Origin: an uncultured Actinomycetota bacterium
GTDB lineage: Bacteria; Actinomycetota; Actinomycetes; Actinomycetales; Microbacteriaceae
Direction: 5' to 3'
Assembly (NCBI GenBank): GCA_963709115.1
Contig: CAVPVF010000016.1
Coordinates: forward strand, 429,986 to 493,985
DNA: 64,000 nt
Part shown: piece by piece, positions 19,902 through 29,347 of the stretch
Layout: each line of letters begins with the position of its first letter
Numbering within the stretch: the stretch's first letter is position 1
The notes under the pieces: model-generated
What the model was told of the DNA's origin: nothing
Database searches by the model: none
What the model saw: only the letters and a program-made list of their open reading frames with translations
Program-made: the position numbers and the translations under genes

Positions 19902-20848
19902 TCAGGCAGCCGTCGCGCGGCCGCCAGGGCTCGTCGCGCGGACCCTCGCGCCCGTCGGCGCGGCCCTCGGGCCCCTCGCCGCGGCGGCGCAGGTAGCGCT
20001 CGAACTCCTGGGCGATCGCCTCGCCGCTCGCCTCGGGCGCGTCGACCGCGTCGCGCGCCTGCTCGAGCTGGGTGATGTAGCCCGCCATGTCCTCGTCGTC
20101 GGCCGCGAGCGCGTCGACGCCGGCCTCCCACGCCTTGGCCTCGGTCTCGAGGTTGCCGCGCGGGATGCTGAGGCCGGTGAGCTCCTCGAGCTTGCCGAGC
20201 AGGGCGAGCACGGCCTTCGGGCGACGGCGCGTTGTGCACGTAGTGCGGCACGGACGCCCAGAGCGACACGGTGGGGATGCCCACGCGCTCGGCCTGGTCG
20301 GCGATGACGCTGAGGATGCCCGACCGGGCCCTCGTAGCTCGACCGGTCGACGCCGAGCGCCTCGCGCACCTCGCGGTTCTCGCTCGACGCGAACACCGAG
20401 AGCGGACGCGTGTGCGGGGCGTCGGCGAGCATGGCGCCGAGCAGCACGATGCCCTCGATGTCGGCCGTGAGCGCGGCATCCACGAGCTCGGCGGCGAAGC
20501 CCTTCCAGCTGCGCGCCGGCTCGGCGCCGATCAGCACGTGCAGCGTGTCGGCGCCGGGGCCGGTGACCCGCTCCTCGTCGTCCGAGGTGGGCGTGCCGCC
20601 CGGGCCGAGGATCGCGGCGCCGGGCCATTCGAGGCGCCGCGACGCCGTCGTCGCCGACGACGACCGTGGGCCGCGTGAACTGGTAGTCGAAGTAGAGCTC
20701 GGGGTCGACCGCGGCGATCTCGACGAGGCCGAGGCGCTCGGCCAGGAGCTTCGCCGCCCCGGTCGCCGCCTCGCCGGCGTCGTTCCATCCCTCGAAGGCG
20801 ACGACGAGCAGCCTTCCGCCCTCGAACCCGGCCGGCTGATTCACTCCA
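19902..20848 (-). CDS. PAC2-family protein (proteasome assembly chaperone-like); frame breaks; C-terminus uncertain
   Basis: [54 protein letters not shown] at the N-terminus with a GTG start and GGAG RBS. Middle segment [46 protein letters not shown]. Downstream segment [11 protein letters not shown]. Confidence 0.7.
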
Positions 20849-20898
20849 GGTGCCCCGCTTCCCGCCCCGGACGCCCGGGGTCCCTCCCACAATAGGCC

Positions 20899-21595
20899 GT
20901 GCCCGTAGACTTGCGGGTTGTGACCACTCGCCTTCCCGCCGCCGTCCTCTGGGACATGGACGGAACCCTCGTCGACACCGAACGCTACTGGATGGCGGCC
21001 GAGGAGGAGCTCGTCGAGTCCTTCGGGGGCCGCTGGACCCACGAGGACGCCCTCGGGCTCGTCGGCAGCGGACTGTGGGAGTCGGCGCGGGTGTTCCAGG
21101 CGGCGGGCGTCGACCTCGACGCCGACACGATCGTCGCGCGCCTCACCGCGCGCGTGCAGGAGCAGCTCGCCGAGCACGGCGTGCCGTGGCGGCCGGGCGC
21201 GCGCGAGCTGCTCGAGGCGCTCCGCGTGGCATCCGTGCCCACCGCGCTCGTCACCATGTCGGTCCGCTCGATGGCCGACGACATCGTGCGCGCGATCCCG
21301 TTCGAGGCGTTCGACGTGATCGTCACCGGCGACGCGGTCGGCAACGCGAAGCCGCATCCCGAGCCCTACCTCACCGCGGCCGACGCCCTCGGCGTCGACG
21401 TGCGCGACTGCGTCGCGATCGAGGACTCGCCCGCGGGCCTCACGTCGGCGTGGTCGGCCGGCGCCGTCACCGTCGGCGTGCCGAACTTCCTCGTCGCTCG
21501 ACGAGGCGCCCGCCCACGTGCTCTGGGAGACCCTCGCCGACAAGTCGGTGTCGGATGTCGCGGCGCTCCTCGACGCGCGGGAGGCCAGCGCATGA
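20899..21595 (+). CDS. HAD-superfamily hydrolase (subfamily IA, beta-phosphoglucomutase/phosphatase-like); 1 frame break near 21490
   Basis: Motif I AVLWDMDGTLVDTE is present, with ...TGDAVGNAKPHPEPY and AIEDSPAGLTSAWSAGAVTVGVPN downstream. An alternative GTG start at 20920. The stop TGA overlaps the trmI ATG (ATGA at 21592-21595). Confidence 0.75.
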
Positions 21596-26104: not shown

Positions 26105-26903
26105 ATGTCCGCGGTGAAGGATCGCGGGGAGAAGAACCGCGAGAAGCGATGTCGCTCGGCGCGCATCTCATCGAGCTGCGCAAGCGCCTGTTCATCTCCG
26201 CGCATCGCGATCGTCGTCGGCATGGCGCTCGGCTGGTGGCTCACCGACGCCTTCGTCTGGCAGGCGATCCAGGAGCCGGTCGAGCGCGTCGCCGAGGCGC
26301 AGGGCAGCGACACGGCGATCATCTTCCCGACCATCTCCAGCGCCTTCGACCTGCGACTGCAGATCGCGTTCACGCTCGGCATCGTGATCTCGAGCCCCGT
26401 CTGGCTCTACCAGATCTTCGCGTTCCTCGTGCCCGGGCTGAACACGCCGTGAGCGCAAGTTCACGTTCGCGTTCTTCGCCACGGCCATCCCGCTGTTCTT
26501 CGCCGGCTGCGCCGCGGGCTGGTTCGTGCTGCCGAACATCGTGAAGCTCATGACGAGCTTCGTCCCCGAGGGCGGCGAGTCGCTGCTCACCGCGAAGGAG
26601 TACATCGACTTCGTGCTGAAGCTCGTGGTCGCGATCGGCATCGCCTTCGTCGTGCCCGTCTTCATCGTGCTGCTGAACTTCGCCGGCGTCATCAGCGCAG
26701 CCGCGATCATCAAGTCGTGGCGCGTGGCGATCCTCGTGATCGTGCTCTTCACCGCGATCGCGACCCCGTCGGCCGACGTCATCTCGATGTTCATGCTCGC
26801 GATCCCGATGATCGCCCTGTACTTCGCCGCCTGGTTCATCGCGCACCTGCACGATCGCCGTGTCGAGCGCCGCAACCGCCTGGAGTTCGAAGCCGCTGTC
26901 TAG
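26105..26903 (+). CDS. tatC: Sec-independent translocase TatC; 2-3 frame breaks
   Basis: The N-terminal extension MSAVKDRGEKNREKR then MSLGAHLIELRKRLFIS resembles mycobacterial TatC. The six TM segments are spread over three frames, ending ...IAHLHDRRVERRNRLEFEAAV. Confidence 0.85.
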
Positions 26904-26912
26904 GCTGGAGGG

Positions 26913-29347
26913 GTGATGAGCCTCTCACCGGCCGAGCGGTACGCGAGTGCTCGCGAGCCAGCGCCGGAAACCCCGACTCGTCGAGTTCGCGTCGAGGCTC
27001 CGCTTCGACCTCGACCCGTTCCAACGCGCCGCCTGCGCCGCGCTCGACGAGGGTCGCAGCGTGCTCGTCGCCGCGCCGACCGGTGCGGGCAAGACGGTCG
27101 TGGCCGAGTTCGCCGTCTTCCTCGCGATGCGGGAGCCGGGCGCGAAGGTCTTCTACACGACGCCGATCAAGGCGCTCAGCAACCAGAAGTTCCAGGAGCT
27201 CGCCGACGAGTGGGGCGCCGGCCGAGGTCGGCCTGCTCACCGGCGACACGAACGTGAACTCGGGTGCGCGCATCGTCGTGATGACCACCGAGGTGCTGCG
27301 GAACATGCTCTACGCCGACTCGCCGCTGCTCGACCGGCTGGCGTACGTCGTCATGGACGAGGTGCACTACCTCGCCGACCGGTTCCGCGGCGCGGTGTGG
27401 GAGGAGGTCATCATCCACCTCCCCGAGGAGGTGCGGCTCGTCTCGCTGAGCGCCACGGTGTCGAACGCCGAGGAGTTCGGCGACTGGCTGCAGGCCGTGC
27501 GCGGCGACACCGACGTCATCGTCTCCGAGGACCGGCCGGTGCCGCTCGAGCAGCACGTGCTCGTGAAGGCGAAGCTCATCGACCTGTTCGACTCGTCGGG
27601 GCAGGCGGCGACGAACCGGGTGAACCCCGAGCTCCAGCGCCTCGCGCGCGCGGGCGGTCGGTCGATCTCCTCGCGGTCGGCGCGCGGGCGCCGCGGCGGC
27701 GACCGCGGGCAGGTACCACCAGTCGTCGCAGGGGAGCGGGCGCGTCGAGCGCCCCGAGGTGGTCGAGCTGCTCCACGGCAAGCACCTGCTGCCCGCGATC
27801 GTCTTCATCTTCTCCCGCGCGGCTGCGACCAGGCCGTGCGCCAGGTGCTCCGCTCCGGCATCCGCCTGACCGAGACCGCCGAACGCGACGAGATCCGCGC
27901 GATCGTCGAGGAGCGCGCCCGGATGCTGCGCGACGAGGACCTCGCGGTGCTCGGCTACTGGGAGTGGCTCGAGGGCCTGCAGCGCGGGGTCGCCGCGCAC
28001 CACGCCGGCATGCTGCCGGCCTTCAAGGAGGTCGTGGAGGAGCTCTTCCAGCTGAAGCTCCTGAAGGTCGTCTTCGCGACCGAGACGCTCGCGCTCGGCG
28101 TCAACATGCCGGCGCGCTCGGTGGTGCTCGAGAAGCTCGAGAAGTTCAACGGCGAGGCGCGGGTGCCGATCACGCCGGGGGAGTACACGCAGCTCACCGG
28201 CCGGGCCGGCCGTCGCGGCATCGACGTCGAGGGCCACTCCGTCATCCAGTGGGTCGACGGCCTCGACCCCGAGGCGGTCGCGTCGCTCGCCTCGCGGCGC
28301 AGCTACCCGCTGAACTCGAGCTTCAAGCCGACCTACAACATGGCCGTGAACCTCATCGACCAGTTCGGCCGCGAGCGCACGCGGCAGATCCTCGAGCTCT
28401 CGTTCGCGCAGTTCCAGGCCGACCGAGCGGTGGTCGACCTCGCGCGCACGCTGCGCAAGCAGGAGGAGTCGATGGCCGGCTACGAGGAGGCGATGCGCTG
28501 CCACCTCGGCGACTTCGGCGAGTACGCGGCCCTCCGGCGGCGCATCGGCGAGCTCGAGCGGCAGGCCTCGAAGGGCAACCCGACGCACGCGCAGCGCGAG
28601 CGGCATGCAGCGCGAGCTCGGAGAGGCGCGCAAGGCGATGCGGGCGCACCCGTGCCACGGCTGCGCCGAGCGCGAGCAGCACGCGCGGTGGGCGGAGCGC
28701 TGGTGGCGCCTGAAGCAGGAGCACGACCAGCTGTCGCGGCAGATCCGCACGCGCACCGGGCAGGTCGCGAAGCGGTTCGACCGGGTCACCGAGGTGCTCG
28801 AGCAGCTCGGCTACCTCGAGCGCGATCGGCACGGCTCGCTCGTCTCGACGTCGGCGGGACGCATCCTGAAGCGCATCTACGGCGAACGCGACCTGCTCGT
28901 CGCCGAGTGCCTGCGGCAGGGCTTCTGGGACGGCCTCGACGTGCCGTCGCTCGCGGCGATGGCGGCGGCGCTCGTCTACGAGCCGCGACGCGACGATCGC
29001 GGCGAGCAGTTCCGCCTGCCGCGCGGGCGGTTCCGTGCCGCGTTCGAACGCACCACGGATGTCTGGAGCGAGCTCGACGACCTCGAGCGCGACCATCGGC
29101 TGGCCGGCAGCGACCAGCCGTCGCCGGCGCTGGCCACGGCGATGCACGCGTGGGCGAGCGGCGCGGGCCTCGGGCAGGTGCTCGCCGACACCGAGCTCGC
29201 GGCCGGCGACTTCGTGCGCTCACGAAGCAGGTCGTCGACCTGCTCGACCAGGTCTCGATCGTGGCGGACGCCGAGCTCGGCGCGACGGCGCGCGCGGCGA
29301 TCGACGCCGTTCGACGCGGCGTCGTCGCCTACGGCTCGGTCGCGTGA
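26913..29347 (+). CDS. helY: Ski2-like DEAD/DEAH RNA helicase HelY; many frame breaks
   Basis: FDLDPFQRAACAALDEGRSVLVAAPTGAGKTVVAEFAV (motif I), DEVHYLADRFRGAVWEEVI (DEVH), LSATVSNAEEFGDWL, and helicase-C GVAAHHAGMLPAFKEVVEELFQLKLLKVVFATETLALGVNMPARSVV. Downstream of tatC as in mycobacteria. Confidence 0.85.

Follow-up and report, generated by a model that had tools for sequence, protein, structure and literature searches.

Gene order at the pafBC locus

The window analyzed here, a 64-kb stretch of contig CAVPVF010000016.1 from an uncultured actinobacterium, carries pafB and pafC, the genes encoding the transcription activator PafBC, at a locus where the genes of the Pup-proteasome system are missing. 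PafBC is a heterodimeric WYL protein; the helix-turn-helix (HTH) domain of PafB reads a GTC-containing −26 element and the HTH of PafC contacts region 4 of σA ("sigma adaptation"), and the activator switches on DNA-repair genes from promoters that have a −26 element and a −10 hexamer and no −35 element. The genes at the locus are, in order, an M20 peptidase gene, uppP, a parJ-type PAC2-family gene (minus strand), a HAD-superfamily phosphatase gene, trmI, a double-FKBP lipoprotein gene, pafB, pafC, tatA, tatC, helY, lnt, and rbpA (minus strand) (Table 1). Pfam searches and tblastn with Agromyces laixinhei proteins found the named genes in the order given in the original prediction, which was right in its description and left unmentioned the HAD gene, the minus-strand orientation of the PAC2-family gene, and the frameshifted state of the genes. 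As it had also stated, trmI is followed directly by the double-FKBP gene and then by pafB, with 43 bp from the trmI stop to the FKBP start, and arc, dop, pup, prcBA, and pafA are found neither between trmI and pafB nor anywhere else in the 64 kb (best tblastn expectation value, E = 0.75).

The PafB segment of the window is 99% identical to a protein from a Joint Genome Institute (JGI) metagenome and 75–95% identical to PafB of named Agromyces species, and on these identities the source organism is assigned to Agromyces, family Microbacteriaceae. Relatives were sampled with a PafB alignment, scanned against one genome per species, which gave 80 loci (~46 from Agromyces and the rest from Luethyella, Glaciibacter, Salinibacterium, Rhodoglobus, Leifsonia, Cryobacterium, Microterricola, Mycetocola, Clavibacter, and Herbiconiux); with two loci fetched earlier, the sample comprised 82 loci. 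The order PAC2(−)-HAD-TrmI-FKBP-PafB-PafC-TatA-TatC-HelY-Lnt-RbpA is common to all 82, including the complete genome of A. laixinhei, and TrmI, FKBP, and PafB are immediate neighbors in every one of them. Judged by these comparisons, the arrangement is the normal, ancient, and invariant one of the Microbacteriaceae and is not peculiar to the source genome, whose locus is that of an ordinary family member; the arrangement can be read from public annotations.

In Arthrobacter sp. B3I9 (L083), which belongs to a sister family, the order is TrmI-ARC-Dop-Pup-PrcB-PrcA-PafA-FKBP(321 aa)-FKBP(131 aa)-PafB/C-x-TatA-TatC-HelY-...-RbpA-Band7, and both an actinobacterial metagenome-assembled genome (MAG; L084) and Angustibacter (L089) show PafA-FKBP-FKBP-PafB-PafC...TatA-TatC...HelY. 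The canonical Pup-proteasome locus, as in Mycobacterium, Streptomyces, and Arthrobacter, is flanked identically to the site in the window, by trmI upstream and by FKBP-pafBC-tatAC-helY (... rbpA, band-7) downstream, but it also contains arc, dop, pup, prcB, prcA, pafA, and a second small FKBP gene, all of which are missing from the window and from the other Microbacteriaceae loci. The Microbacteriaceae arrangement equals that of Arthrobacter minus the ~7-kb ARC-to-PafA block and minus the small second FKBP gene; the ARC-to-PafA block is absent from its ancestral site in the Microbacteriaceae. The excision of a proteasome/pupylation block that had been predicted holds insofar as the genes are missing exactly where relatives have them, but with an order that is invariant in the family it is not a notable event of one genome or of a narrow lineage. 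A partial loss of the system with retention of pafBC-type genes is likewise seen in actinobacteria with a Corynebacterium/Bifidobacterium-type locus, which kept pupylation and lost the 20S proteasome (PMC3511204); in that type, however, only prcBA is gone and arc, dop, pup, and pafA stay, whereas from the Microbacteriaceae locus the entire module is gone, with ligase, deamidase, tag, and ATPase included.

As tblastn queries for the block we used ARC, Dop, Pup, PrcB, PrcA, and PafA of L083 and L084, with TrmI and FKBP as controls. Across the window and the 82 loci (1.62 Mb), the ARC-to-PafA genes gave nothing better than E = 0.14, and the controls matched 77–83 of the 83 sequences. The 43-bp trmI-FKBP junction was read from the sequence, and tblastn showed no remnant of any Pup-proteasome gene there. 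The idea that a strain-specific excision, or an assembly artefact of an error-rich sequence, removed the block might draw on the poor quality of the window (frameshifts roughly every 700 bp, plus the T46/A210/A101 tract at 40.6–41.0 kb), but it is refuted by the identical junction and order in 82 independent assemblies, complete genomes included, and its probability is practically nil.

A simple relocation, in which nothing was lost and the pupylation/proteasome genes, all or some of them, now lie elsewhere on the chromosome, appears quite unlikely. It would be compatible with the scope of the block searches, which covered only the window and the 82 loci, and with the presence of unrelated genes between pafA and prcBA in some species (PMC3511204), but a rigidly conserved order of genes at the pupylation locus is described for all organisms capable of pupylation (PMC3511204), the 1.62 Mb sampled from 82 genomes contained no match, and all six genes are gone together, leaving the 43-bp junction. 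The clean junction, free of any pseudogene scar, would also suit a primary absence. On that view the Microbacteriaceae were always without the block, and other lineages gained it between trmI and FKBP once they had diverged; a proposal exists that Nitrospirae obtained the pupylation locus by horizontal transfer (PMC3511204). We consider primary absence very unlikely, since Arthrobacter has TrmI directly before ARC and the block then followed by FKBP-PafB(C)-TatA-TatC-HelY, the downstream part (PafA-FKBP-FKBP-PafB-PafC) is also found in Angustibacter and in the actinobacterial MAG L084, pafA, pafB, and pafC form one operon in mycobacteria according to the literature, pafBC itself being part of the locus, and a single loss is a more parsimonious history than a series of identical insertions.

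Table 1. Features of the window (GC3, G+C content at third codon positions; positions are those of the 64-kb stretch).
Feature	Position	Strand	Basis and remarks
PafBC-type promoter, TGTCGG (−26), N10, TACCCT (−10)	2702-2723	+	Only consensus match in the window; 8 nt before GTG at 2732
XPB-like superfamily 2 (SF2) DEAD/ResIII helicase gene, candidate PafBC regulon member	2732-4539	+	GC3 segments; ~585-590 aa in relatives; two frameshifts
imuA-imuB-dnaE2	~11.5-17.27 kb	-	MT3502_N, IMS, and DNA_pol3_alpha in relatives
imuA	16547-17269	-	tblastn
Perfect LexA (SOS) box TCGAACATATGTTCGA	17285-17300		Directly upstream of imuA; only 0-mismatch match in the window
tRNA-Leu(GAG)	17456-17540	-	Between imuA and the M20 peptidase gene
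M20 peptidase gene	17663-18987		Pfam/tblastn
uppP	19039-19869		Pfam/tblastn
parJ-type PAC2-family gene (ParJ/SCO1662/Rv2125 orthologue)	19936-20844	-	Pfam PF09754; A. laixinhei PAC2 colinear over 4 frame segments; three frameshifts
HAD-superfamily phosphatase gene	20899-21592	+	tblastn, 81% identity to A. laixinhei HAD; Pfam HAD in relatives; NCBIfam beta-phosphoglucomutase-family hydrolase
trmI (tRNA m1A58 methyltransferase)	21596-22627	+	Pfam TrmI-like_N, GCD14; tblastn; 67% identity to Arthrobacter TrmI; stop TAG at 22625-22627; one frameshift at ~22280
trmI-FKBP intergenic junction, 43 bp	22628-22670		Sequence read; site of the ARC-to-PafA block (~7 kb) in Arthrobacter
Double-FKBP peptidyl-prolyl isomerase lipoprotein gene	22671-23621	+	Pfam FKBP_C, 2 stretches; tblastn; GTG start, lipobox LTGC; two frameshifts
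pafB (HTH-WYL-WCX)	23659-24692	+	Pfam WYL; match to P0001; two frameshifts at ~24530 and ~24584
WYL domain region of PafB	24199-24330		
pafC (HTH_PafC-WYL-WCX)	24691-25724	+	Pfam HTH_PafC, WYL, WCX; tblastn; three or more frameshifts
tatA	25819-26090, 3′ end uncertain (frame errors)	+	Pfam TatA_B_E; tblastn
tatC	26105-26903	+	Pfam TatC; tblastn; one frameshift
helY (Ski2-like DEAD/DSHCT helicase)	26916-29347	+	Pfam DEAD, Helicase_C, DSHCT, MTR4-like stalk; tblastn; five or more frameshifts
T46/A210/A101 tract	40584-41035		T46, directly followed by A210, 95 nt, and A101; inside a patch of 53% G+C at 40.2-41.2 kb

PafB and PafC, their promoters, and the PafB sensor groove

The best Protein Data Bank (PDB) matches of PafB are module B of Arthrobacter aurescens PafBC (6SJ9) and Mycobacterium smegmatis PafB (9FND_X, 7P5X_AY), at 1e-37 to 1e-43, with PafC reaching only 2e-5; the PafC orthologue matches module C of 6SJ9 (residues 337–662) at 9e-38 and M. 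smegmatis PafC (7P5X_AX) at 3e-21, with PafB reaching only 6e-4. NCBIfam gave no specific model match for PafB or PafC, nor for the PAC2-family protein. The two genes are adjacent in 82 of 82 relatives, each encoding an HTH-WYL-WCX protein. Residues R46 and R50, which in M. smegmatis PafB recognize the GTC of the −26 element (PMC8635444), are invariant in 118 of 118 Microbacteriaceae PafBs, and the window has the motif ERQFERDK. Association of the locus with pafA and the Pup-proteasome genes has been used as a criterion for PafBC (PMC6789036); this association is missing here, and the FKBP, tatA, tatC, and helY neighbors are kept. Sequence similarity identifies the two WYL genes as true PafB and PafC orthologues, upholding the pafBC assignment of the original prediction, with adjacency in all relatives and with each protein best matching its own PDB chain. 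The window genes share with known PafBC the adjacent HTH-WYL-WCX paralogues, the PafC-specific HTH (PF19187), R46/R50, tatA-tatC-helY downstream, and FKBP upstream, and the Microbacteriaceae share with it the cognate −26/−10 promoters; unlike known PafBC, the window genes are not in an operon with pafA, and the locus has no Pup-proteasome genes.

Single-chain PafBC fusions do occur inside the Microbacteriaceae (P0369 from Microbacterium excoecariae, 660 aa, and P0415 from Leucobacter, 694 aa), as reported for Arthrobacter, Kocuria, and Thermobifida. A long open reading frame (ORF) in the window (23659–25212) resembles such a natural PafB-PafC fusion and was rejected as a frameshift artefact; relatives have separate genes (343 and 339 aa), and the window shifts frame inside sequence that is 97–100% identical.

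We searched for PafBC-type promoters with the consensus tGTCgg(N10)tA(N3)T, derived from chromatin immunoprecipitation sequencing (ChIP-seq; PMC8635444), and with a looser form, TGTC-N12-TANNNT; the older RecA-NDp form, TGTCRGTG-N7-9-TANNNT, had no match in the window. The consensus match lies in front of the XPB-like helicase gene, whose homologues measure ~580–590 aa across the Microbacteriaceae and show a weak match to archaeal XPBII. This promoter is present at five of five helicase loci from four Microbacteriaceae genera, namely the window, an Agromyces-like record (L085), Microbacterium resistens, Leifsonia sp. Leaf336, and Salinibacterium. Each of the four further loci has exactly one TGTC-N12-TANNNT in its 4.7 kb, placed 8 nt before an in-frame start codon (motif positions 1444 in L085, 1471 in L086, 1360 in L087, and 1471 in L088), and the promoter is kept though the surrounding sequence differs; in Salinibacterium the upstream gene differs too. 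A promoter of this type was also found in front of an SRAP/YedK-like gene (MCGRF...), which lies between imuA and the M20 gene in eight Agromyces loci (L011, L013, L014, L015, L018, L022, L026, and L042) and is absent from that place in the window. The full motif stands 7 nt before the ATG at seven of the eight loci (e.g., motif at 2921–2942 and gene at 2949–3659 in L013), and at the eighth the GTC core remains. Such footprints point to a PafBC-type regulon at work, with putative leaderless transcripts, in a family whose usual site lacks the Pup block.

In Leifsonia (L087), the motif implies a helicase start 37 codons upstream of the annotated one. The record L085 (JAGGPI010000001.1), titled Streptomyces sp. 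ISL-90, looks Agromyces-type; its helicase is 88% identical to that of the window, and its neighborhood partly matches the window (S11 peptidase, GDSL lipase, helicase), with AsnC and VIT1 following directly, versus ~3 kb further on in the window.

In M. smegmatis PafB, the groove residues for binding of single-stranded DNA (ssDNA) and activation are R181, Y196, R204, R208, R211, and R214, and ssDNA binding or activation is lost both in Y196A and in the double mutant R211A/R214A (PMC11804915). Among 118 Microbacteriaceae PafBs, Y196 is replaced by H (116), R204 by A, V, L, or S (115), and R211 by L (118), with R181, W195, R208, and R214 kept. The groove of the family thus reads H196, A/V204, and L211, as opposed to Y, R, and R in known PafBC; in 98 PafBs retrieved with an Arthrobacter query, position 196 is Y, position 204 is R (96) or K (2), position 211 is R, and the other positions are kept. 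PafC retains the WYL and R-NF-R-VD-R motifs with all three arginines and is canonical. The possibility that the H/A/L signature is narrow was rejected by a search in which, of the 150 cluster representatives closest to the family profile, 89 have L at position 211 and 40 have R. Since the named L211 clusters come from Microbacterium, Pseudoclavibacter, Leucobacter, "Microbacteriaceae bacterium", or unclassified Micrococcales/Actinomycetota MAGs, and the named R211 clusters come from Arthrobacter and Nostocoides/Tetrasphaera, the signature is family-wide; as far as sampled, it tracks the family that lacks the Pup block, with neither exclusivity nor a causal link to the loss of Pup being proven.

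PafBC in a family lacking the Pup-proteasome block at its ancestral site

In our reading, the window is probably an ordinary Agromyces stretch with indel errors, from a family whose ancestor deleted the arc-to-pafA module and kept PafBC as a pupylation-independent regulator. The window carries the conserved actinobacterial backbone trmI ... FKBP-pafB-pafC-tatA-tatC-helY, from which, in the ancestor of the whole Microbacteriaceae, the contiguous arc-dop-pup-prcB-prcA-pafA segment would have been deleted cleanly between trmI and FKBP; PafBC would have been retained after this deletion because its job is independent of pupylation. The event would then be a loss rather than a gain elsewhere, and the Microbacteriaceae would be without pupylation genome-wide. 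In mycobacteria, the Pup-proteasome system has a shut-off role, which other proteases may have taken over in the Microbacteriaceae. PafBC itself is probably active in the family and may well be damage-responsive there.

Several points weigh against this reading. Besides the scope of the block searches given above, the literature searched held no statement that the Microbacteriaceae lack pupylation, the proteasome, or the whole module. The single promoter match in the window is not significant alone (1.3 expected by chance) and carries weight only because of its conservation across genera. The motif search suggested by the original prediction gave one match in the window, before the XPB-like helicase gene; the regions upstream of its uvrA-like (~36.7 kb) and helD-like (~45.2 kb) genes showed no PafBC motif, and recA, the key PafBC target, lies outside the window. 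Finally, the PafB groove of the Microbacteriaceae has substitutions at three residues on which ssDNA sensing depends in M. smegmatis.

These substitutions suggest that the ssDNA-sensing step in Microbacteriaceae PafBC may differ. A tentative alternative is a repurposed PafBC that still binds −26/−10 promoters and no longer senses ssDNA via the PafB WYL groove, sensing having moved to PafC or the ligand having changed. The near-uniform changes at positions 196, 204, and 211, the retention of Y/R/R in other actinobacterial PafBs, the effects of Y196A and R211A/R214A in M. smegmatis, and the intact WYL and R-NF-R-VD-R motifs of PafC all fit such a change. On the other hand, the family keeps R181, W195, R208, and R214, a His side chain is able to stack on bases like Tyr, and the mutants in the literature are alanine and double mutants only.

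Combined with the deletion of the block that we favor, the groove changes raise the doubtful but possible picture of the Microbacteriaceae as a "PafBC without pupylation" clade with a rewired regulator, marked by module loss together with Y196H, R204A/V, and R211L, and with PafC and the −26/−10 promoters conserved; if so, damage would be sensed through a different ligand or through the PafC side, and shut-off of the response would be independent of Pup. Taken as a kind, a PafBC that lacks pupylation genes and whose PafB sensor groove has changed represents a variant of the known system, and the literature searched gave no description of it. A large culturable family (e.g., Clavibacter, Leifsonia, Microbacterium, and Agromyces) appears to run a PafBC regulon without its Pup-proteasome partner and with an altered PafB groove, providing a natural system for asking whether proteasomal removal of RecA or other repair proteins is needed to end the PafBC response, and which WYL residues really define ssDNA sensing. 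The comparative value of these observations is modest and is mainly for specialists.

Sequence quality and neighboring genes

The window has a G+C content of 72%, and in GC3 frame plots the coding frame changes at intervals of a few hundred bases within what ought to be single genes throughout the 64 kb; Pfam searches of the ORFs returned only partial domains per ORF. Frameshifts were mapped by tblastn with intact proteins of the complete A. laixinhei genome (L002, CP040872.1). All genes from imuA to nfeD are colinear with A. laixinhei and each is split over 2–6 frames, giving ~22 frameshifts in 16 kb (~1 per 700 bp) with nearly every gene broken; the shifts fall at short G/C runs (e.g., 24530, 24584, 22280, 20643, 20320, and 20218), and the broken genes are otherwise 85–99% identical to intact relatives. 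For example, the window PafB matches the intact 343-aa P0001 at 335 of 340 residues, spread over three frames. From this pattern, the frameshifts are recognized as indel errors in the assembly consensus. Pseudogenization was rejected as their cause, as GC3 stays at ~0.95 and the amino acid identity before and after every shift is preserved; the position of the shifts at short G/C runs and the near-identity to an intact metagenome protein also rule out gene decay. The T46/A210/A101 tract is implausible in an Agromyces chromosome of 72% G+C and is probably a chimeric join or a read artefact, pointing the same way as the indels. A relaxed PafBC-motif match (40458–40479) lies just before this poly-A/T tract and is not to be trusted. 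The closest long relative, a MAG contig (contig_65838, L001/L046) with 95% PafB identity, is also ridden with frameshifts, and its trmI, FKBP, helY, and lnt are called as fragments.

The gene just upstream of the HAD gene, on the opposite strand, had been predicted to be a PAC2-family gene that survived the loss of the proteasome. Its membership of the family stands (PF09754), but it is no leftover of proteasome assembly. In the PDB ranking, its intact orthologue is closest to 3MNF (E = 1.6e-60) and Rv2125 (5UN0; 8e-52), and it matches the SCO1997/Rv2714/Cgl1923 group more weakly (2P90, 6.5e-18; 2WAM, 7.5e-15; 3E35, 4.2e-12). With PF09754 and closest similarity to ParJ/Rv2125, it belongs to the ParJ/Rv2125 subgroup and is assigned, on this ranking, as the ParJ (SCO1662)/Rv2125 orthologue. 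The name "proteasome assembly chaperone 2" stems from fold similarity to a eukaryotic protein. The presence of the gene says nothing about a former proteasome, and it is not a proteasome relic; more generally, a "PAC2" annotation in actinobacteria should not be taken as evidence for a proteasome. The 3MNF structure is that of a Streptomyces avermitilis PAC2-family protein named as ParJ orthologue, and ParJ, one of the near-universal actinobacterial signature proteins, has a characterized bacterial role in acting on ParA and controlling its polymerization (PMC4255298). The window gene shares PF09754 and the strong PDB matches with this signature protein.

The LexA-dependent mutasome reported near pafBC was confirmed: imuA-imuB-dnaE2 lies ~6.4 kb away, and the actinobacterial SOS box TCGAAC-N4-GTTCGA, searched for before the gene triad, is present as a perfect match before imuA. 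Gene order and SOS box are those of other LexA-regulated imuA-imuB-dnaE2 mutasomes; no difference was seen, and the mutasome is ordinary. The place taken in the window by tRNA-Leu(GAG) is a spot of variable insertions in relatives, with an IS1595 transposase gene and a nucleotidyltransferase gene in A. laixinhei (L002) and the SRAP gene in eight Agromyces loci.

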